In this document: one piece after another, positions 30,251-53,270 of the stretch
Layout: each line of letters begins with the position of its first letter
Numbering within the stretch: the stretch's first letter is position 1
From: Candidatus Kaiserbacteria bacterium
GTDB lineage: Bacteria; Patescibacteriota; Minisyncoccia; Phycocordibacterales; UBA2100
NCBI GenBank assembly: GCA_027083345.1
Contig: JALWOZ010000008.1
Coordinates: forward strand, 5,006-69,005
Length of the DNA: 64,000 nt
Reading direction: 5' to 3'
Notes under the pieces: generated by a model
Seen by the model: the letters and a program-made list of their open reading frames with translations, nothing else
What the model was told of the DNA's origin: nothing
Databases searched by the model: none
Position numbers and translations under genes: made by a program

Positions 30251-31783
30251 TTATTGGCATTCTGGACTTACTAAACCGCCTATATATACACCTGTTGTAG
30301 AAACACTCCTTGCTTTTTGCAGTGCACATTTCTGCTGAACGGTCTGGGTGTATGGTTCACAACGAGTATTGTAAGCCCTATTTTTCTTAAATATACTGTC
30401 ATTAGTTGTTGTATAGCACTTCACGGATTGTGTGCTTGGTATTGGCTGTGTAAAACTTTGTTCGGCTTGCCTTGTAATCATATTAAGACTTGCTTGCGTT
30501 GATTGAACTATACCTGAAAGGCGTGATATTCGCTCCAAATCGTCTAAAATATCCTCCTCTGCTCGTTTAGTGTGTGTTCCTATTGTCTCAAATACAAGGT
30601 TATCAACCTCAACTAACCTATCTGTGATTTTTGTAAAATCTTCTGTATATGAACCATTGTCGCCAAGTGTCATAGCCAACCTCATTCCACAGGTTAAATA
30701 CATTTTATTTTCTACCCATTCAGACGTATTCAACCCTATACACTCACGAAGTCTGTCTTGGTCTTCTGTGATAACTGAAACTACATCTTTTTTCTTTAAG
30801 GCATCTATAAAATACAAATCTACTGTCTCGTATAGGGAGTTTATATGACCAGTAAGATAATCACTGTCTGCAACAATACTATCTCTTCGTAGTTCAAGTA
30901 TATCCTTGTAACGACTTGGTACAGATAGAGAACTCTCAATGGCAACATTAGCCCACTGGTTCAACAAGTCTCTTGCGTGTGCAATATGTTTACCCCTATG
31001 TTCTTCTACCGTCTCTTTGAGAAGTAAGTAGTTCTTCTTATCTTCTTCAAGTAGCCCTACTAAAATCTCGGCTTTATCTATAAACTCTTGATGTTCAGTC
31101 TCGTAATCTCTCTCGGTATTTTTTTGATTTGTAACTGGTCTTATTTTATCAGAAAATGAGAACTTATTTGTTTTATTATTATCTTTTTTTACTGGTTCTA
31201 GTATGCGAAAATCTGAAGATGGTTTCTTTGGCTGATTTTGATTTGATACAGTCGGTTTAGTTTTGTTTTTGGGCGTTTGTACAGCGATTTTAATATCTGT
31301 CTCTATGTTTTGCATAAGAGAGCCATTTTTATCAACAGTGTAAAGTCGGTTGATTAAATCCATAGCCGTTTTATCTACTGTTCCAAAGTTATTTGGAGTT
31401 TGAAAATATCCATATTTACCAACTAATCTTGATACAGCCCAGTGTGTTGCCGACCCATAATAGCAAGTAACTGGTTTGTCAAAAACACCCTCTTTTTTCA
31501 GTATCTCTTGTAATGTGCACACATCATTACCTTTTGCACCCTGCTCCATAAAATGCACTACTGGACGTCTCTCAAAGTTCGTACTGTTAATCAACACGTC
31601 CTCTTCTGTACTGGTCGCAGTAGTTTCTACCAACTTGGTAGGTTGTATATTATTTCTGTCTTCTGTCTGTTTTGTAACATAATATCCACCAGTGCTAACA
31701 ACTGTAAGTACTAATACGGCGATAGCCAGTATTGGTATTTGTATAAAACCTTTTTTATTGTTTTGATTAAAACTCATAGTCAT
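30251..31783 (-). CDS. Membrane-anchored protein with peptidoglycan-binding (PG_binding_1) domain
   Basis: N-terminal TM; GAKGNDVCTLQEILKKEGVFDKPVTCYYGSATHWAVSRLVGKYGY matches the PG-binding domain pattern. Confidence 0.5.
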   Translation of the reverse strand: MTMSFNQNNKKGFIQIPILAIAVLVLTVVSTGGYYVTKQTEDRNNIQPTKLVETTATSTEEDVLINSTNFERRPVVHFMEQGAKGNDVCTLQEILKKEGVFDKPVTCYYGSATHWAVSRLVGKYGYFQTPNNFGTVDKTAMDLINRLYTVDKNGSLMQNIETDIKIAVQTPKNKTKPTVSNQNQPKKPSSDFRILEPVKKDNNKTNKFSFSDKIRPVTNQKNTERDYETEHQEFIDKAEILVGLLEEDKKNYLLLKETVEEHRGKHIAHARDLLNQWANVAIESSLSVPSRYKDILELRRDSIVADSDYLTGHINSLYETVDLYFIDALKKKDVVSVITEDQDRLRECIGLNTSEWVENKMYLTCGMRLAMTLGDNGSYTEDFTKITDRLVEVDNLVFETIGTHTKRAEEDILDDLERISRLSGIVQSTQASLNMITRQAEQSFTQPIPSTQSVKCYTTTNDSIFKKNRAYNTRCEPYTQTVQQKCALQKARSVSTTGVYIGGLVSPECQ

Positions 31784-32001
31784 TTAACTATGGCGTAGAC
31801 ATACAAAAAGCCCATCGCCAGAGGTGGACAGAAGCCCACTATGCAGGTTTCCCCACATAACCAGAAGAGCAGTCCCTGAACGACGGGTTCTTTACACTCT
31901 TCTGGTTTTTGCACCATACCTCTCAAATGAGAGGGTTAGGTACTCCATCTTGTTAGATGTTACCATTATTCTAACATAAGATTGCGATTTAACCTCACTC
32001 T

Positions 32002-39192: not shown

Positions 39193-40611
39193 CTAAAACT
39201 CTACCTCTACACTCTGATTGTGCTCCGGGACCACTGCATCTACTCCTAAAGCATCTCTGAGTCTCTGAGCCAAAAAAAGTGAGGAGCGTGGCTCGCCCAT
39301 TGCTATAAATACTTTCTTTAAGGTACTAGCTGTACTCTCTACAAACTTAACCAAATGACTACTATCTTTATGTGCTGAGAAGCCACTTATAGAGTTAACT
39401 CTTGCACGTACATGCACCTTCTCTTTATTAATATAAACAATTTTATTACCATCTTGTATCTGTCTACCAAGAGAGTGTACTGCTTGGTACCCAACAAAAA
39501 GTATCTCATTATCTTTGTCTCCTAAAAATCTCTTCTCATGACTAAGCACTCGCCCACCGACACTCATACCAGAGCTAGATATTATAATCTTAGCTCCCTT
39601 ATTTTTAGAGAGCTTTGCAGAACCTATTGAATTTTCTATTTCTATAAACTTAGGGAAATCAAAAATATCATCTCCGGCCTTAATCTCTGCCTGTACTCTA
39701 TCATTAAATATCCTTGTATACTTCCTAAATATGTCTGTAACCTTAGAGCCTAGTGGTGAATCCAAGTACACTGGTATACTCGGTACACTACCGCTCTCTA
39801 TAAGCTTATTAAGCTCATATAAGAGTATCTGTGTGCGTTGCATAGAGAAGGCCGGTATAAGCAAAGTACCTCCACTCTTAGCAGTACGCTTTATGGCTTT
39901 AGCTAATTTAGCAATTCGGTCTTCTCTATCTTCATGATCTCTATCGCCATACACACTCTCCATCAACAAATAATCTACATCCACTATCTTATCTGTTTCT
40001 CTCAACAAAGGTGCTGGGGTGTTACCTAAGTCCCCTGTAAAAACAAAAGTCTTTCTATCTTTGCCTACCCCTCTCTTCATCTCAACCATAACAGACCCTA
40101 ATATGTGCCCCGCCTCTAAAAAGCGAATAGACATATCTCCTATGCTAAACTCCTCATAATAGTCTTTGGATTGCCATAGGGCTAAAGCATCATCAACGTC
40201 TTTATTACTATATATAGGATCTCTACCTAGCTTACGTGCCTCTTCTCCCATCACTTTTACGGCATCTGCCAACATTGGTTTAGCTAGATCTTTAGTAGCA
40301 GGAGATGAATATATAACTCCATTAAAGCCGTCTTTGACTAGTTTGGGTACTTTACCTAAGTGGTCGGCGTGCGCATGAGTAACAATAAGCACATCTACCT
40401 TAGACGGATCGTAATCAAACTTACTATTTTGTTCAAATCCACCTTTAGCCTGTAATATGCCACAATCTATAAGGATAGTCTTACCCCTAACCTCAAACAT
40501 AAAGTTAGCACCCGTAACTGTACCCGCCCCACCGTAGAATGTTAGTCTGCTTTTTTGTTGATTATTTTTGTTTGACATATTCATTGTAATTGTTATTATA
40601 TTTATAACCAT
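39193..40611 (-). CDS. rnj: Ribonuclease J (metallo-beta-lactamase / beta-CASP)
   Basis: VTHAHADHLG (HxHxDH), beta-CASP region, 472 aa. The true start is probably the internal MNMSNK (~40584). Confidence 0.8.
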   Translation of the reverse strand: MVINIITITMNMSNKNNQQKSRLTFYGGAGTVTGANFMFEVRGKTILIDCGILQAKGGFEQNSKFDYDPSKVDVLIVTHAHADHLGKVPKLVKDGFNGVIYSSPATKDLAKPMLADAVKVMGEEARKLGRDPIYSNKDVDDALALWQSKDYYEEFSIGDMSIRFLEAGHILGSVMVEMKRGVGKDRKTFVFTGDLGNTPAPLLRETDKIVDVDYLLMESVYGDRDHEDREDRIAKLAKAIKRTAKSGGTLLIPAFSMQRTQILLYELNKLIESGSVPSIPVYLDSPLGSKVTDIFRKYTRIFNDRVQAEIKAGDDIFDFPKFIEIENSIGSAKLSKNKGAKIIISSSGMSVGGRVLSHEKRFLGDKDNEILFVGYQAVHSLGRQIQDGNKIVYINKEKVHVRARVNSISGFSAHKDSSHLVKFVESTASTLKKVFIAMGEPRSSLFLAQRLRDALGVDAVVPEHNQSVEVEF

Positions 40612-40612
40612 A

Positions 40613-40660
40613 CCTGCCTAAGGCAGGCTCCGACCCCCCGCTTTACGGCGGGGGGGTTAT
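40613..40660. terminator. Two adjacent GC-rich hairpins (cctgcc-taa-ggcagg; CCCCCCGC-tttac-GGCGGGGGGG) followed by a T-rich run
   Basis: Seen directly. The intergenic region between the mazF-like stop and the rnj start is otherwise AT-rich. Confidence 0.45.
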
Positions 40661-41043
40661 TTTATACCATTTATATTTTTCATTTTGTTTATTATATTAT
40701 TAAATTCGTCTAGGTCTAACCTCCTTATATTTCTGCTTAACCTCTTACTACTCACTGTCCTGCTCTGTGTGAGTGCCAAATAAGATATGACATCTCCTCG
40801 TGATAATTTATAGTAAAACCTAGCATTACCTCCAGACTTAGTCATTGGTATAACTAAACACGTATCATTAGCAAATCTCTTTATTACTAGTACAGGTCTC
40901 TCAAATAACTTACCAACACCATCCTGTTCATGACCTATGTTAACACCAATAGACGCCCACCAAATCTCTCGGCGCTTTGGATAACCGTGTCGTATGTTAT
41001 TTATCTTCTGCTTCTCTATACACCAAGCATCAAAGTCTTTCAT
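40657..41043 (-). CDS. MazF/PemK-family endoribonuclease toxin (orphan; no protein antitoxin ORF upstream)
   Basis: ...IWWASIGVNIGHEQDGVGKLFERPVLVIKRF...CLVIPMT matches MazF (GSEQAGHRPAVVLSPF....C.P.T). Confidence 0.7.
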   Translation of the reverse strand: MKDFDAWCIEKQKINNIRHGYPKRREIWWASIGVNIGHEQDGVGKLFERPVLVIKRFANDTCLVIPMTKSGGNARFYYKLSRGDVISYLALTQSRTVSSKRLSRNIRRLDLDEFNNIINKMKNINGIK

Positions 41044-41049
41044 AACTAA

Positions 41050-41215
41050 AAGTATACCACGGCCAGATACGAAAAAACCGACAACAAAAGTCGGATTCTT
41101 CGTATCGCGGGTTTATTGACCTGAGCAATTCAGGTGGGTGCTCGCAACTATTTGCCAAGACAAACAGCAATATAAAGCTCCCTTTATATGATTATTCGGT
41201 AATAATCCCCGCGAC
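41050..41215 (-). ncRNA. Candidate small structured RNA (promoter-like TTAACA-16-TATAAT, nested hairpins, intrinsic terminator ccgac-ttttgtt-gtcgg-tttttt) immediately upstream of the mazF-like gene
   Basis: Minus strand: ...ttaacattttactaaagtaaggTATAATacattaagtcgcggggattattaccgaataatc...cctgaattgctcagg...gatacgaagaatCCGACttttgttGTCGGttttttcgtatc. The 219-nt spacer between ndk and mazF has no ORF of 60 aa or more. Confidence 0.35.
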
Positions 41216-41262
41216 TTAATGTATTATACCTTACTTTAGTAAAATGTTAATTCACCTACTCC

Positions 41263-41736
41263 CTATTTACCCATAAGCTTATCTGAGTAAACCATCTCTG
41301 CATCAGGACGATTATAGTCAAACAACTCATCCTCTGTAAAGAATCTGGCAACCTCCTTTTCACCATTTTCGGGAGAGTCTGAGGCGTGTACTAAATTAGA
41401 CTGAGTAGAAAGAGCTAAATCGCCTCGTATAGTACCGGCATCTGCAACAACAGCGTCAGTAACCCCAACTATAATACGCGTAGCCTTAACTGCATTAAAA
41501 CCGGAGATCACCATAAGCACAACTGGTGCTGACTGCATAAACCCCTTAACATCAGGAAAGAATGGTTTATCAGCTATATGGCTATAATGCTCATCCAATG
41601 CAACGTCACTAAGCTTGGTCATCTTAGTACCTATAATTTTAAGCCCCTTGCGCTCCAGACGATGCACTACTTCACCGAATAAACCTCTTACTAACGCATC
41701 TGGCTTGATAATAATTAAAACTTTCTCTTCTTTCAT
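41263..41736 (-). CDS. ndk: Nucleoside diphosphate kinase
   Basis: LIIIKPDALVRGLFGEVVHRLERKGLKII and NLVHASDSPENGEKEV (NxxHxSD active-site His). Confidence 0.9.
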   Translation of the reverse strand: MKEEKVLIIIKPDALVRGLFGEVVHRLERKGLKIIGTKMTKLSDVALDEHYSHIADKPFFPDVKGFMQSAPVVLMVISGFNAVKATRIIVGVTDAVVADAGTIRGDLALSTQSNLVHASDSPENGEKEVARFFTEDELFDYNRPDAEMVYSDKLMGK

Positions 41737-41797: not shown

Positions 41798-44749
41798 TTA
41801 GAATCCGGAGATACCGGCGAAGGGGTCTGTTGGTTGTATCGGATTCTGTGGCTCTTTCTTTTTATATCTCTCTTGTATCTCTGCCTCTACCTCCTCTCTC
41901 GGTCTACCATATTTATTATATGACTCTTGTTTCAACTCCTCTATATGAGAGTAATCGGGTTCGTCGACTACAGGGAAAGTGATTATATCAAACGGAGCTG
42001 TCGGAGAGCCCCCAACGAGCATTTTTAAGTAAGCATTCCTATTCGGTAAACCTGTAATATCTCCAGCATTAAACTCAGGTTGAAACTCTTTCTCCAAAAA
42101 CTCTGCATCCTCTTGAGAGACCCTAAAGATGCATTTAGTACCGACATTACCAAATACAGCATCTCGTATTTCATCACTAAGTTGCTTTATGTATTGGTGG
42201 GCTAAATTAAGACTTAAAGCATATTTACGAGCCTCAGAGAGTATTGTAGCGATACTAGGTGTTGTAAAATTTTGGAATTCGTCTATATATAAGTAGAAGG
42301 GGTGCCTTTCTTCTTCAGGTAGATCTACCCTTGCAAGAGCAGACTGGAGTATCTTACTTACAAATATAAGTCCTAAAAGCTCTGCATTAATATCTCCAAT
42401 ACGACCCTTAGAGAGATTGACGAGTAATATTTTCTTATTGTTCATTATGTCAGATATACTAAAGGCACTCTTAGACTGAGCGATAATAGGACGCATTATC
42501 TCATTACCCATAAAGAGGTCTGTCTTAGCAGTGATATATGGCACTATATTCTCTAAGCTTGCTTCACCGCCCGCCTTCTCTGCTATCTCCTCCCAGAATT
42601 GGTTTACAACAGGGTTTTGACTGCGGGCTAAACAACTATGGCGAAATTCCTTATCAGAGAGCACTCTGGAGATATCTCCTATCGTAGCCGTACCATGCTC
42701 CATGCCCTCAAGTACCAACATAGCAGAGTTACGGAAGTATTGCTCAAACATAGGCCCCATACTCTCGGGACTCTTCTTGCCAAATATCTGCATGAAAATC
42801 TGGAAGAGCTCATTAACTACAAAAGTCTTTTCTTTTGGATCGTCCTTATTAAACTCCATAAAATTAAGACCCATAGGCATATCTGTATAACCAGGATCAA
42901 AATATATTACATCATTATGTCTATTTTCTGGCACGCTAGCTAATACATCCATAATATCTGAACCGTGCGGATCTATATAACAACAACCCTCTCCATTATT
43001 AATATCTTGTATTATCATCTGCTTCATCAAGAATGTTTTACCTGTACCGGTCTGGCCTATCTCATAAAAATGCCTCATCCTATCTATGCTACCAAATTTA
43101 ACTATGGTCTCATTAACCCCAAACTTATTCTTACCTAAGACTATGCCTTCTGTGTCTCCTACATCTATAGGAGCTGGTTTGTGTTTTGCCTTGTTTTGTT
43201 TTAACTCACGACTCGTTGATACAGCCTGCCCAGTTAAGTGATACATAGTTGTGAGCTCCTCTATAGATAAAGGGATTTGTTGTGAAGATGCAAAAATTCT
43301 CATAATAAATCCTCTCAGAGATTTGTTCAATTTAGCTCCTTTTAATCGCTTCCATACTATTACATTGCCTTGCCCTTTATCAAACTGATTAAATGTACTT
43401 GTTATATCCTCAAGAATCTCAACAGCACGAGGCCTAGTTGAGGCACTGGCAACTGCACGCACCGTTACGGGCACAACTCTTTTTGAGGATTTCTCAGTTA
43501 TAAGGTCTAGAGTTATCTGGTCTACAACATTAGACTGGGCATCCTCCCCTCTAGGAGACCTTATTGTATTTTTAAAATCAACCCATACCTTACTCCACAC
43601 TCCTCTATTCTTAGCTATGGCATCCTCGACGGTGTCTCCTTTGCGGATAGCATCTATTATTTTTTTATATTTTTTATTTATACTTGTCCCCTTATTGCCT
43701 ATGACAAATTGTAAAGATGCTCCTTCTCCATGTTTCTGCAATTTAGAAAAGGCAGACAAAATCACATTCAAAGGATCATGTGTAAACTCTTTATAAACTT
43801 TAAGCGGATATATCTCATCTCTACCCAACTGCGCCTCAGCACAAGCATCTTCTCCAGAGTTATTAAAGATATTATAATCATTACGTTGCTCCTCTATAAC
43901 AGCGTCAGGGAATATAGACAAAAAATGCTTCTCAAACATACCTTTTTTAGTTACTGGAACCGATACATAGAAAATAGCCTCCTCACTCCCCTCACTGACG
44001 GCTACCTCCACAGTAAATACTTTATTATTCTTCTTAGCTAATCCAAGAAAGTCCTTCCCCCCGTCGGTAGTAGTTAACAACCCTAGATACAATTGCTCCA
44101 TTGCGCCTAATAACTTCTCTAGCTCTTGTGCCTTATCACTCTCCTCTTTACTCTTAGGGGAGGAGACAGACACCTTGTACAATGTCATATGTAATGCTTG
44201 CCATATTTCCCCCGTATGTCGCAAATCTTTAACAGGCATACCCTCTTGTACATATTGAGCTAATATTCTATGTAAGTCATCCTCTATATGGTGATTACCT
44301 ATCTTTTTAGCCACTATTAAGGCATTCTTAATTCCCCTATCACGTGCTAAAGCCAACAGCTCATCTATTTGCCTATCATGCTCCTCTTGCTCTAAGCCTA
44401 TAGCCACTCCGGCCGACTCGTACTCCCCCATGGCATAATCATCTTGCAACACATTTTGCACAGGCTCTACTGAGTAGTCTTTGATAACTCTTTTATGTGC
44501 TCTGTCTGACTCAAACTTATTACCACCTAAATCTAAATTATCTGGATGGGCTTGCAATTTCTCTTGGTGAGCCACCTTAGCCCTGAGATACTCCAACTCC
44601 TCTTGAGGGGAACTGAACCTATTGTCTACCGAATCTTTCTTTATGTTCACCTGCCCAGAGGCCGAATCCCTAACCTTTTTATTAGTATGCTCAGGTGGCG
44701 TAACAGTCTCATTTAGTATTATTGGTTCTTGTGCAATCTCCTTAGACAT
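41798..44749 (-). CDS. TraD/TraG/VirD4-like P-loop ATPase (type IV secretion coupling-protein family) with large N-terminal domain
   Basis: Walker A YEIGQTGTGKTFLM; LYIDEFQNFTTPSIATILSEARKYALSLNLAHQYIKQL (DE Walker B plus RK..QS..QL) as in TraD/VirD4-type ATPases; 983 aa. Confidence 0.5.
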   Translation of the reverse strand: MSKEIAQEPIILNETVTPPEHTNKKVRDSASGQVNIKKDSVDNRFSSPQEELEYLRAKVAHQEKLQAHPDNLDLGGNKFESDRAHKRVIKDYSVEPVQNVLQDDYAMGEYESAGVAIGLEQEEHDRQIDELLALARDRGIKNALIVAKKIGNHHIEDDLHRILAQYVQEGMPVKDLRHTGEIWQALHMTLYKVSVSSPKSKEESDKAQELEKLLGAMEQLYLGLLTTTDGGKDFLGLAKKNNKVFTVEVAVSEGSEEAIFYVSVPVTKKGMFEKHFLSIFPDAVIEEQRNDYNIFNNSGEDACAEAQLGRDEIYPLKVYKEFTHDPLNVILSAFSKLQKHGEGASLQFVIGNKGTSINKKYKKIIDAIRKGDTVEDAIAKNRGVWSKVWVDFKNTIRSPRGEDAQSNVVDQITLDLITEKSSKRVVPVTVRAVASASTRPRAVEILEDITSTFNQFDKGQGNVIVWKRLKGAKLNKSLRGFIMRIFASSQQIPLSIEELTTMYHLTGQAVSTSRELKQNKAKHKPAPIDVGDTEGIVLGKNKFGVNETIVKFGSIDRMRHFYEIGQTGTGKTFLMKQMIIQDINNGEGCCYIDPHGSDIMDVLASVPENRHNDVIYFDPGYTDMPMGLNFMEFNKDDPKEKTFVVNELFQIFMQIFGKKSPESMGPMFEQYFRNSAMLVLEGMEHGTATIGDISRVLSDKEFRHSCLARSQNPVVNQFWEEIAEKAGGEASLENIVPYITAKTDLFMGNEIMRPIIAQSKSAFSISDIMNNKKILLVNLSKGRIGDINAELLGLIFVSKILQSALARVDLPEEERHPFYLYIDEFQNFTTPSIATILSEARKYALSLNLAHQYIKQLSDEIRDAVFGNVGTKCIFRVSQEDAEFLEKEFQPEFNAGDITGLPNRNAYLKMLVGGSPTAPFDIITFPVVDEPDYSHIEELKQESYNKYGRPREEVEAEIQERYKKKEPQNPIQPTDPFAGISGF

Positions 44750-52142: not shown

Positions 52143-53270
52143 TATATGAGCAAAACAATTGTTATATCAGCTAATACCGCTTGGTTTTTATTACATTTTG
52201 AGAGAGAGTTAATAATCAATCTCATACAAGATGGATACAATATACATTGCATAAGTAAATACGATAAGACCACCTTCAGAAAACTCAACAAACTTGGTTG
52301 CACCTGCCACAAAATACACATAAACCGCAAAGGTATGAGCCCTATAGAAGAGACATATACTCTCTTGCAATATCTATTACTTTATATAAAAATACGCCCA
52401 AAAGTAATACTCAGCTTCACCATAAAACCAGTTATATATAGCGGTATTATAAGTAGAATATTAAAAATAAAGACTATTAATACTATAACAGGTCTTGGTA
52501 CAGCATTTATAAATGAAGGATTACAAAAGAAGATAGTCATAACACTTTATAAATCCGCATTAAAAAAAGCAGATAAAGTGCTTGTCTTAAACAATTACGA
52601 TAAAAAAATATTTATAAAATATAAGCTATGCAATAAAGAGATTCTAAATATTATACCTGGAGCTGGTGTAGATATAAATAAATTTAAATACTCTATAAAA
52701 CCACCAAGCAGTATAATTGACTTTGTATTCATAGGTAGGATACTAAAAGACAAAGGTATCTTAGAGTTTATAGAAGCCTCAAAGAAAATACTACTTAATT
52801 ATGAAAATATAAAGGTACAGATAGTGGGTCCAATAGATACAGATAATATATCCGCAATAAATACGGAAGAGCTTGAAAATCTAATAAAAGATACAAAAAT
52901 AAAATATCTGGGAGAATCAGCGGACATATACCCCATCTTAAAACAATCTGACTGCATCGTGCTCCCATCTTATAGAGAGGGTGTGCCCACGGTATTACTT
53001 GAGGCTATGGCTACAGGCAGACCAATTATAACCACGGATGCTCCAGGTTGTACAGAGCTAGTCATTAACAACAAAAACGGATACAAAGTCCCGATTAAAG
53101 ACCCAAAAGAACTCTCAAAAGCCATGACTAAAATAATCAACCTATCAAATGCTGAGAGGGTAACTATGGGCAAATTAAACAGAGAGATTATAAAGCAAAG
53201 ATACACCAAAGAGATGGTAGTAAACGAGTATAAAAGCTTATTAAGAACGCTTTATAAAAATCTTAAATAA
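52137..53270 (+). CDS. Glycosyltransferase family 4 (GT-B)
   Basis: PSYREGVPTVLLEAMATGRPIITTDAPGCTELV (E-x7-E region). Confidence 0.8.
   Translation: MQYMSKTIVISANTAWFLLHFERELIINLIQDGYNIHCISKYDKTTFRKLNKLGCTCHKIHINRKGMSPIEETYTLLQYLLLYIKIRPKVILSFTIKPVIYSGIISRILKIKTINTITGLGTAFINEGLQKKIVITLYKSALKKADKVLVLNNYDKKIFIKYKLCNKEILNIIPGAGVDINKFKYSIKPPSSIIDFVFIGRILKDKGILEFIEASKKILLNYENIKVQIVGPIDTDNISAINTEELENLIKDTKIKYLGESADIYPILKQSDCIVLPSYREGVPTVLLEAMATGRPIITTDAPGCTELVINNKNGYKVPIKDPKELSKAMTKIINLSNAERVTMGKLNREIIKQRYTKEMVVNEYKSLLRTLYKNLK

Follow-up and report, generated by a model that had tools for sequence, protein, structure and literature searches.

A MazF-fold toxin gene with a predicted convergent antisense RNA, beside a 6S-like small RNA gene, in a Candidatus Kaiserbacteria contig

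Type I toxin-antitoxin systems with convergent antitoxin RNAs that overlap the 3' end of the toxin gene are known from Bacillus subtilis, as in txpA/RatA and bsrG/SR4, and the toxins of classical type I systems are small hydrophobic (membrane) peptides. Among the type III systems ToxIN, CptIN and TenpIN, ToxN has a Kid/MazF-like fold. This study concerns a toxin gene of the MazF fold and its flanking RNAs in a 64,000-nucleotide stretch of DNA, here called the window, from a Candidatus Kaiserbacteria bacterium (Patescibacteriota; GenBank assembly GCA_027083345.1, contig JALWOZ010000008.1, positions 5,006 to 69,005 of the forward strand). An earlier note, made from the sequence alone, had read the interval 40657-41262 as an orphan MazF-fold toxin preceded by a promoter, a structured RNA and a terminator in a type III-like layout. 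Comparative analysis points to a different arrangement: most likely, the locus pairs a toxin of the MazF fold with a convergent antisense RNA in a type I-like manner, next to a 6S-like RNA that is unrelated to it, and is a distant relative of the kind found on the Campylobacter plasmid pVir.

The experimental anchor for this reading is pVir of C. jejuni 81-176, whose gene CJJ81176_pVir0047 (30634..31038) encodes a protein 34% identical to the window toxin (E 1e-17) with a shared N-terminal FDxW. A 77-nt small RNA (sRNA), CJpv3, is encoded on the minus strand of pVir from 31119 to 31043 and is Northern-positive (Dugar et al. 2013, Table S12, PMC3656092). Its 3' end lies 5 nt past the pVir0047 stop (31038), and the CJpv3 probe matches the sequence just 3' of the toxin gene. 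In differential RNA sequencing, the transcription start site of CJpv3, flagged as antisense to pVir0047, has a step height of 16164, compared with 28 for that of the toxin at 30608 (Table S5, PMC3656092). An excess of antisense RNA over toxin mRNA is demonstrated for the pVir homologue only. According to passages in two citing papers, pVir carries a type I system made up of the antisense RNA antitoxin CjrA and the toxin CjpT, in which CjrA neutralises CjpT by pairing with its mRNA (PMC10470494, PMC7826846).

The window locus shares with pVir a toxin of the same PemK subfamily, the same two-hairpin unit 3' of the toxin and a convergent RNA, predicted in the window and strongly expressed on pVir; pVir0047, too, has no annotated neighbour that encodes a protein antitoxin. 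The two loci also differ. They belong to different phyla, and pVir is a conjugative plasmid, whereas the window gene stands in a chromosomal housekeeping neighbourhood. The predicted window RNA is about 60 nt long instead of 77 nt, lacks an extra 5' hairpin and has no sequence in common with CJpv3, and the window toxin mRNA is predicted to be leaderless, whereas that of pVir0047 has a 26-nt leader. The cjrA/cjpT system reportedly goes back to Shen et al. 2016, Mol Microbiol 101:909. Compared with txpA/RatA and bsrG/SR4, the window locus shows a similar plan, with a predicted convergent sRNA under its own strong promoter, a 3' overlap and complementary hairpins. It differs from classical type I systems in that its toxin is a soluble MazF-fold RNase of 128 amino acids (aa).

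The toxin gene and its candidate antisense RNA

The toxin gene (40657..41043, minus strand) encodes a 128-aa protein of the PemK subfamily, as the earlier note had proposed. The product matches Pfam PemK_toxin (PF02452) with an E-value of 7e-12 and 45.9 bits (cut-off 23.1). Its AlphaFold model, with a predicted local distance difference test score (pLDDT) of 81, matches B. subtilis YdcE/MazF and S. aureus MazF in Foldseek with a probability of 1.0 and template-modelling (TM) scores of 0.67-0.77, and the closest solved sequence is Kid. Alignment with Kid and YdcE places the near-invariant R49 (in RPVLVI) and T67 (in IPMT, a PxT/S motif) at the MazF catalytic Arg/Thr-Ser pair, which is R25/T48 in B. 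subtilis MazF. The protein is predicted to be a sequence-specific endoribonuclease of the MazF fold.

An extended -10 promoter, TGgTATACT (41051..41059, minus strand), ends 7 nt 5' of the toxin ATG, so the toxin mRNA is predicted to be leaderless. The TGnTATA(C/A)T box is conserved 7-8 nt 5' of the ATG in all five toxin-bearing syntenic loci, and no Shine-Dalgarno sequence was found before the toxin ATG. Leaderless starts are the rule in the window. It is nearly devoid of Shine-Dalgarno sequences, with a similar motif in one of its 48 long open reading frames (ORFs), and 21 of the 48 have a TATAAT-like -10 box, often TG-extended, ending 5-11 nt 5' of the ATG.

Beyond the 3' end of the toxin gene lies a near-consensus plus-strand promoter, TTGACA-16-TGtTATTAT (40572..40599; 11/12 in the scan, with the TG), which overlaps the start region of the neighbouring beta-CASP gene. 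It would drive a convergent antisense sRNA of about 60 nt (40606..40665, plus strand), which promoter, terminator, fold and conservation mark as a candidate RNA antitoxin. The predicted RNA consists of a hairpin (40613..40627), the linker CUCCGA, a terminator hairpin (40634..40655, called by the terminator scan of the plus strand) and a U-rich tail (40656..40665). Within the toxin gene it covers the stop codon (40657-40659) and the last codons before that, and its minimum free energy (MFE) is -30.4 kcal/mol (z = -3.4). By these features it would be the product of a separate sRNA gene that has a promoter and a terminator to itself, converges on the toxin gene and extends into the toxin's 3' end.

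Conservation of this unit extends well beyond the window. In the five syntenic loci, CTTGACAT and its 16-nt spacing to the -10 box are invariant; two hairpins with TCGGAG between them follow right after the toxin stop, and L005 shows a compensatory stem change. A hairpin-linker-hairpin also follows the homologues in at least ten further contexts with unrelated neighbours, namely truB/uvrD, murJ, comM, HAD/trehalose genes, a type I restriction-modification (R-M) operon, NUDIX and methylase genes, and Campylobacter, Helicobacter and Nitratiruptor plasmids. These distant homologues mostly show a tetraloop in hairpin 1, a linker of the TCGAT/TCGGAG type, a short hairpin 2 and then a AUUUGUAC-like sequence. 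In a prospective test on two further loci, L045 fitted in full, with an identical TCGGAG linker, and L044 in part. The unit is absent from the two toxin-less loci L013 and L014. The predicted RNA gene travels with the toxin and is missing without it, with three exceptions: L044 has part of the downstream architecture, L039 has none and L041 is read through. A MAFFT alignment (A7) of the distant downstream sRNAs was structurally inconsistent, so the family-wide evidence consists of per-locus folding and promoter scans.

Several features favour the strand opposite the toxin for this unit, and these bear on a rival explanation, namely that the toxin is a solitary MazF-type RNase with no dedicated antitoxin and that the hairpins are terminators or mRNA-stabilising 3' structures next to a neighbour's promoter region. 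Read on the sense strand, hairpin 1 leads into UCGGAG or UCGAU and not into a U-tract; its U-rich tail lies on the antisense strand. The antisense U-tail is present in most contexts and is weak in the epsilonproteobacterial loci. In 13 of 18 loci, the unit folds more stably in the antisense than in the sense orientation, and two C-A mismatches of the sense strand (in L034 and the window) become U-G wobbles in the antisense RNA. Most other contexts, with their unrelated neighbours, likewise have a consensus or near-consensus antisense promoter, with the -10 box ending 53-90 nt past the stop codon; L031 has a perfect TTGACA-16-TG-TATAAT. No antisense promoter passing the scan was found in L007 or L029, and L044 is ambiguous. 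On pVir, a very abundant antisense RNA of 77 nt comes from the homologous position. Some features do favour a solitary toxin, among them a hairpin 1 that looks bidirectional in L029 and L044, but overall this explanation is unlikely.

Together, the evidence indicates that the downstream antisense RNA is probably made, and we lean slightly towards its being the antitoxin. The toxin mRNA would start leaderless from its own extended -10 promoter and would read through both hairpins, as expected because no U-tract follows hairpin 1 on the sense strand. With read-through of both hairpins, the two RNAs would therefore be fully complementary over about 50-60 nt. An abundant antisense RNA would then pair with the 3' end of the toxin mRNA, beginning with loop-loop contacts between the complementary hairpins, and pairing would trigger degradation or silencing of the message. 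Loss of the locus, or a drop in antisense RNA, would release toxin synthesis. This would amount to type I-like control of a MazF-type toxin.

Several points weigh against such control. The antisense RNA of the window is a prediction from sequence features, and the 3' extent of the toxin mRNA is deduced from the missing U-tract. The antisense -35 box coincides with the first beta-CASP codons, so its conservation is perhaps partly coding, and terminator-like hairpins always seem to covary. In prophage CJIE4, one hairpin has its wobble pair on the sense strand, and L044 fits in part only. Finally, it is likely, judging by position, that cjpT is pVir0047 and that CjrA is CJpv3.

The downstream sRNA might instead neutralise the toxin protein directly, in a type III-like manner, as a bound pseudo-substrate or as a processed RNA, and not through the mRNA. 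Its 5' (G)UACAAAU and its linker (AAUCGA/CUCCGA) are conserved between distant members from the candidate phyla radiation (CPR), which cis-antisense pairing alone would not require, and the targets of MazF enzymes are short single-stranded motifs such as UACAU. ACAAAU is equally the complement of the U-rich tract that follows hairpin 2 on the sense strand, however, and these motifs are not common to the epsilonproteobacterial members. In the passages cited above, moreover, the pVir system is described as type I. Direct inhibition is accordingly a quite improbable alternative to control through the mRNA.

The antisense -10 box TATTAT (40594-40599, plus strand) coincides in part with a minus-strand TATAAT (40600-40595), which would be the -10 box of the beta-CASP gene (ATG 40584). 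The antisense and beta-CASP divergent promoters could share this -10 region and compete.

Protein partners and settings of the toxin family

Toxins of the MazEF, PemIK and Kid-Kis systems have the same fold as the window toxin and the same probable catalytic Arg/Thr pair. The window locus differs from these type II systems in that no protein antitoxin gene was called beside the toxin, and its subfamily is extended at the N-terminus by about 22 aa relative to Kid and YdcE. No called gene within +/-10 kb of the toxin matches a MazE-like Pfam family. No MazE/PemI/Kis-type gene was called beside the toxin, upstream or downstream, in the window or in ten metagenomic contexts, and in four of these ten the upstream gap is merely 2-5 nt or is replaced by a 4-nt overlap. 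An adjacent, co-transcribed protein antitoxin was accordingly found neither in the window nor in those contexts. The earlier note had supposed an RNA partner in place of a protein one; this probably holds, with the RNA at the gene's other end and not in the upstream spacer.

That spacer (41044..41262, 219 nt, between ndk and the toxin gene) contains no antitoxin ORF, in agreement with the earlier description. Its only frame, a TTG-initiated ORF of 46 aa (41030..41170, minus strand), lies inside the upstream RNA, has no ribosome-binding site and changes in frame and sequence in L005; it was rejected as a coding gene. On the Nitratiruptor plasmid L037, a 62-aa ORF (1955-2143) with a ribbon-helix-helix-like N-terminus (TIRVEDDLWDKF) stands 3' of the toxin and its hairpins and before rep. 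Its product may be a regulator of the CopG type or, in that lineage, a protein antitoxin.

The toxin family is large, with 3960 representatives at E<=1e-3 in a profile search. Searches with tblastn located members on plasmids of Campylobacter, Helicobacter and Nitratiruptor as well as in CJIE4 prophages. The N-terminal extension (residues 1-22; 40978-41043, minus strand) reads MKDFDxWNxxKK with an invariant W7, and residues 9-16 are predicted to form a short helix in the AlphaFold model. It may be autoinhibitory or RNA-binding. No PADLOC model matches the toxin, and NCBIfam gives only far-sub-threshold ChpB/MazF matches. A weak match that might have been a second toxin copy, at 52409-52498 (tblastn E 0.079), falls within a glycosyltransferase-like ORF of the opposite strand and was taken as a chance match.

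Some homologues are embedded in R-M operons. In L031-L033 (3001-3405), the gene stands in an hsdR-hsdS-PemK-hsdM operon with a 4-nt overlap with hsdS. In L044 (1501-1887), it lies in an operon of a res-like gene, PemK and an N6/N4 methylase, with a 2-nt gap. These settings suggest a defence or addiction role for some members of the family.

The upstream RNA gene

The spacer between ndk and the toxin gene holds an RNA gene with its own predicted signals, all on the minus strand. Its sigma-70-type promoter, TTAACA-16-TATAAT (41223..41250), scores 11/12 in the scan, and the distance from the -10 box to the RNA 5' end, AGUCGC, is fixed at 6-7 nt in all relatives. The structured core of 116 nt (41101..41216) is defined by covariance model R1, covariation and folding. 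It is followed by an intrinsic terminator (41072..41094), in which CCGAC-7-GTCGG (41094..41078) precedes T6, giving an RNA of about 145 nt with the terminator included. Promoter and terminator had both been recognised correctly in the earlier note. The terminator is close to the toxin ATG, as the note had also observed, but its T-run ends 28 nt before the ATG and not 25 nt. Its position is kept in L003, L005, L013, L014 and L015, while its sequence is swapped for other G+C-rich hairpins and T-runs, which fits a functional terminator. Such sites are more frequent in the scan than in shuffled sequences, with 11 promoter-like sites versus 4.7 +/- 2.1 and 3 terminator-like sites versus 0.8 +/- 1.0.

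Folding and comparison indicate that this is a genuine structured RNA and, as far as sequence can tell, an autonomous conserved sRNA gene with its own promoter and terminator. The 146-nt transcript has an MFE of -52.6 kcal/mol (z = -5.4), and none of 200 shuffles is as stable. Model R1 gives the core 133 bits and finds it as a single copy in the window; in the syntenic relatives, the core is conserved far above its flanks. Pattern scans of genome and metagenome collections added L013, L014, L015 and L022, bringing the alignment (A2) to eight distinct sequences. With a loosened pattern, the metagenome scan returned 11 loci, comprising one new variant (L022), three duplicates and seven chance matches. 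In A2, 95% of paired cells are standard pairs, compared with about 40% after sliding of the partners; both members differ in 11 of the pairs, and none of 500 shuffles attains the observed values. Covariation supports the outer closing stem, the two-part apical stem and the hairpin in the 3' bulge.

Both stem-loops singled out in the earlier note exist. CCUGA...UCAGG is backed by a compensatory A-U to G-C change, whereas GAUUAUU...AAUAAUC is invariant, so that covariation can neither support nor oppose it. Here, AUUAUU can pair either with AAUAA on the 3' side, forming a rod, or with AAUAAU in the 5' bulge, forming a 5' hairpin. All three segments are invariant (41190-41206 and 41111-41115; A2 columns 11-27 and 102-106) and the two pairings are mutually exclusive, which may make these A/U segments a conformational switch of the RNA.

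The distribution of this RNA bears directly on the type III-like reading, in which the upstream promoter, RNA and terminator form an RNA antitoxin unit, type III-like or of another kind, and the terminator sets the ratio of RNA to toxin. The superficial likeness to ToxIN, CptIN and TenpIN is the order of promoter, RNA, terminator and toxin. RNA and toxin are adjacent on the same strand in the window, L001-L006, L015 and L022, and the lack of a protein antitoxin favours this reading as well. L013 and L014, however, retain the RNA in the order ndk-RNA-betaCASP, with no space for a toxin gene, and tblastn found no toxin gene or remnant in either. Because L013 is a close relative of the window and L014 of L015, both of which bear the toxin, the toxin cassette is present or absent within clades. 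Conversely, toxin homologues (36-47% identity) occur without the upstream RNA in ten other gene contexts: after truB, murJ (4-nt gap), comM (5-nt gap) and a HAD hydrolase gene, inside type I and type III-like R-M operons, and elsewhere. A search with R1 gave no match in the seven metagenomic toxin contexts searched (L007-L012, L029-L035), and matches were confined to syntenic loci; this search excluded L044, L045 and the plasmid and prophage loci.

Other evidence runs in the same direction. The conserved extended -10 box of the toxin sits 3' of the upstream terminator, so the toxin forms its own transcription unit without need of read-through. Tandem Repeats Finder returned 0 rows for 40500-41400, confirming that the spacer lacks repeats, unlike type III systems. 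The toxin is PemK_toxin only in Pfam, and its best structures are MazF/YdcE, not ToxN/AbiQ, CptN or TenpN. The RNA itself is 6S-like in sequence and shape. This double dissociation of RNA and toxin largely refutes a type III-like link, which has become very improbable, and the upstream RNA is in all likelihood independent of the toxin. The spacer RNA is inherited independently of the toxin. A structured RNA adjoining a toxin gene is no evidence of a functional pair, a caution that applies to genome scans in general.

Sequence and comparison together establish three separate predicted promoter/terminator units, and it is rather likely that the interval consists of three separate transcription units and not one toxin-antitoxin operon. 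Between L014 (6992-7090, minus strand) and L015, which come from close relatives, the whole cassette of toxin and predicted antisense RNA is missing in the former and present in the latter, through either gain or loss. In L014, a TGGTATAAT box lies directly 5' of the beta-CASP gene.

The canonical 6S RNA consists of a closing stem, a large 5' bulge, an apical stem and a hairpin opposite the bulge (PMC8414754). At a permissive threshold, 6S RNA (SsrS, RF00013) is the best Rfam match of the upstream RNA in the window, at 26.7 bits (E 0.0025, model positions 40-147). It is also the top match in L002 (26.0 bits) and the second by score in L004 (24.6 bits), after a Leu_leader match to the terminator. 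Like 6S RNA, the upstream RNA has a gene of its own, and its structure comprises a closing stem, a 5' central bulge of 18 nt, an apical stem-loop with a G+C clamp and, in the 3' bulge, a small hairpin. The alignment extends over the two sides of the central bubble, CCGAA..UAUAA.GGGAGC and GCACCCACCUG...CAGG, so that both bubble-flanking consensus motifs occur in order, in register and with high posterior probability. The most conserved block of the RNA, GGGGAUUAUUACCGAAUAAU, corresponds to the would-be bubble and template strand. The upstream RNA would be a housekeeping-type RNA of the Saccharibacteria/Patescibacteria lineage, and as a 6S RNA it would act as an open-promoter mimic that binds the RNA polymerase holoenzyme.

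Against membership of the 6S family, all three scores are far lower than the gathering score of 46.4 bits, and no RF00013 match at E<=1 was found in L006, L013, L015 and L022, four of the seven relatives tested. These missing matches lower confidence in the assignment. At 116 nt, the core is far below the 150-200 nt or so of typical 6S RNAs, and neither of its arms approaches the long arms of 6S RNA. The inner closing stem (AUUAUU/AAUAA) is invariant, which leaves the rod not proven over the 5' hairpin, and the MFE structure is a multi-branch fold with the 5' hairpin, not a rod. The papers searched gave no link of 6S RNA with Saccharibacteria or the CPR. The same points would favour an independent new sRNA class of the Saccharibacteria clade, with the Rfam likeness due to convergence or chance. 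The motifs aligned in order and register, the presence of all four canonical architectural elements and the position of the most conserved block speak against a new class. The case for a 6S RNA, in a candidate miniature form, is evenly balanced on this sequence evidence, and the new class stands as a tentative alternative.

Implications and neighbouring features

Two proposals follow from the locus, namely a widespread PemK/MazF subfamily controlled by a convergent, 3'-overlapping antisense sRNA and not by a protein antitoxin, and a mini-6S RNA of about 116 nt in Saccharibacteria. Taken jointly, they fall a little short of even probability. If true, the first would define a type I-style class of MazF toxins with thousands of representatives, from the CPR to plasmids and prophages of Campylobacterota, some of them in R-M operons, and would extend RNA-antitoxin control to a classical type II toxin fold. 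Annotation pipelines label this family 'type II toxin-antitoxin system PemK/MazF family toxin', seemingly as orphans, and if 3' antisense RNA genes are general, many such 'orphan' MazF genes would be explained. To our knowledge, few toxin-antitoxin systems have been characterised in Saccharibacteria or the CPR, and the locus would offer a concrete test of toxin-antitoxin function in these reduced genomes. The upstream RNA, if it does belong to the 6S family, would be shorter than any other natural 6S RNA and the first to be reported from the CPR. It would set the lower size limit in nature for this RNA polymerase regulator and show that it is kept even in ultra-small CPR genomes.

The window is A+T-rich. 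On the minus strand, the gene order around the toxin is a TraG/VirD4-like ATPase gene, ndk (41263..41736), the 219-nt spacer, the 128-aa toxin ORF and a beta-CASP/RNase J-like gene. The order ndk, spacer, toxin and beta-CASP is repeated in relatives whose toxins are 87%, 69% and 52% identical to that of the window. The ATPase gene (41798-44749, minus strand) encodes a 983-aa TraG/VirD4-like coupling ATPase with DUF8128, TrwB_AAD_bind and TraG-D_C matches and is syntenic 5' of ndk in several relatives. Elsewhere in the window, at 31824-31942 (minus strand), lies a full-length match to the LOOT RNA (Rfam RF03000), a structured RNA with no assigned function, at 79.2 bits against a gathering score of 46.4.

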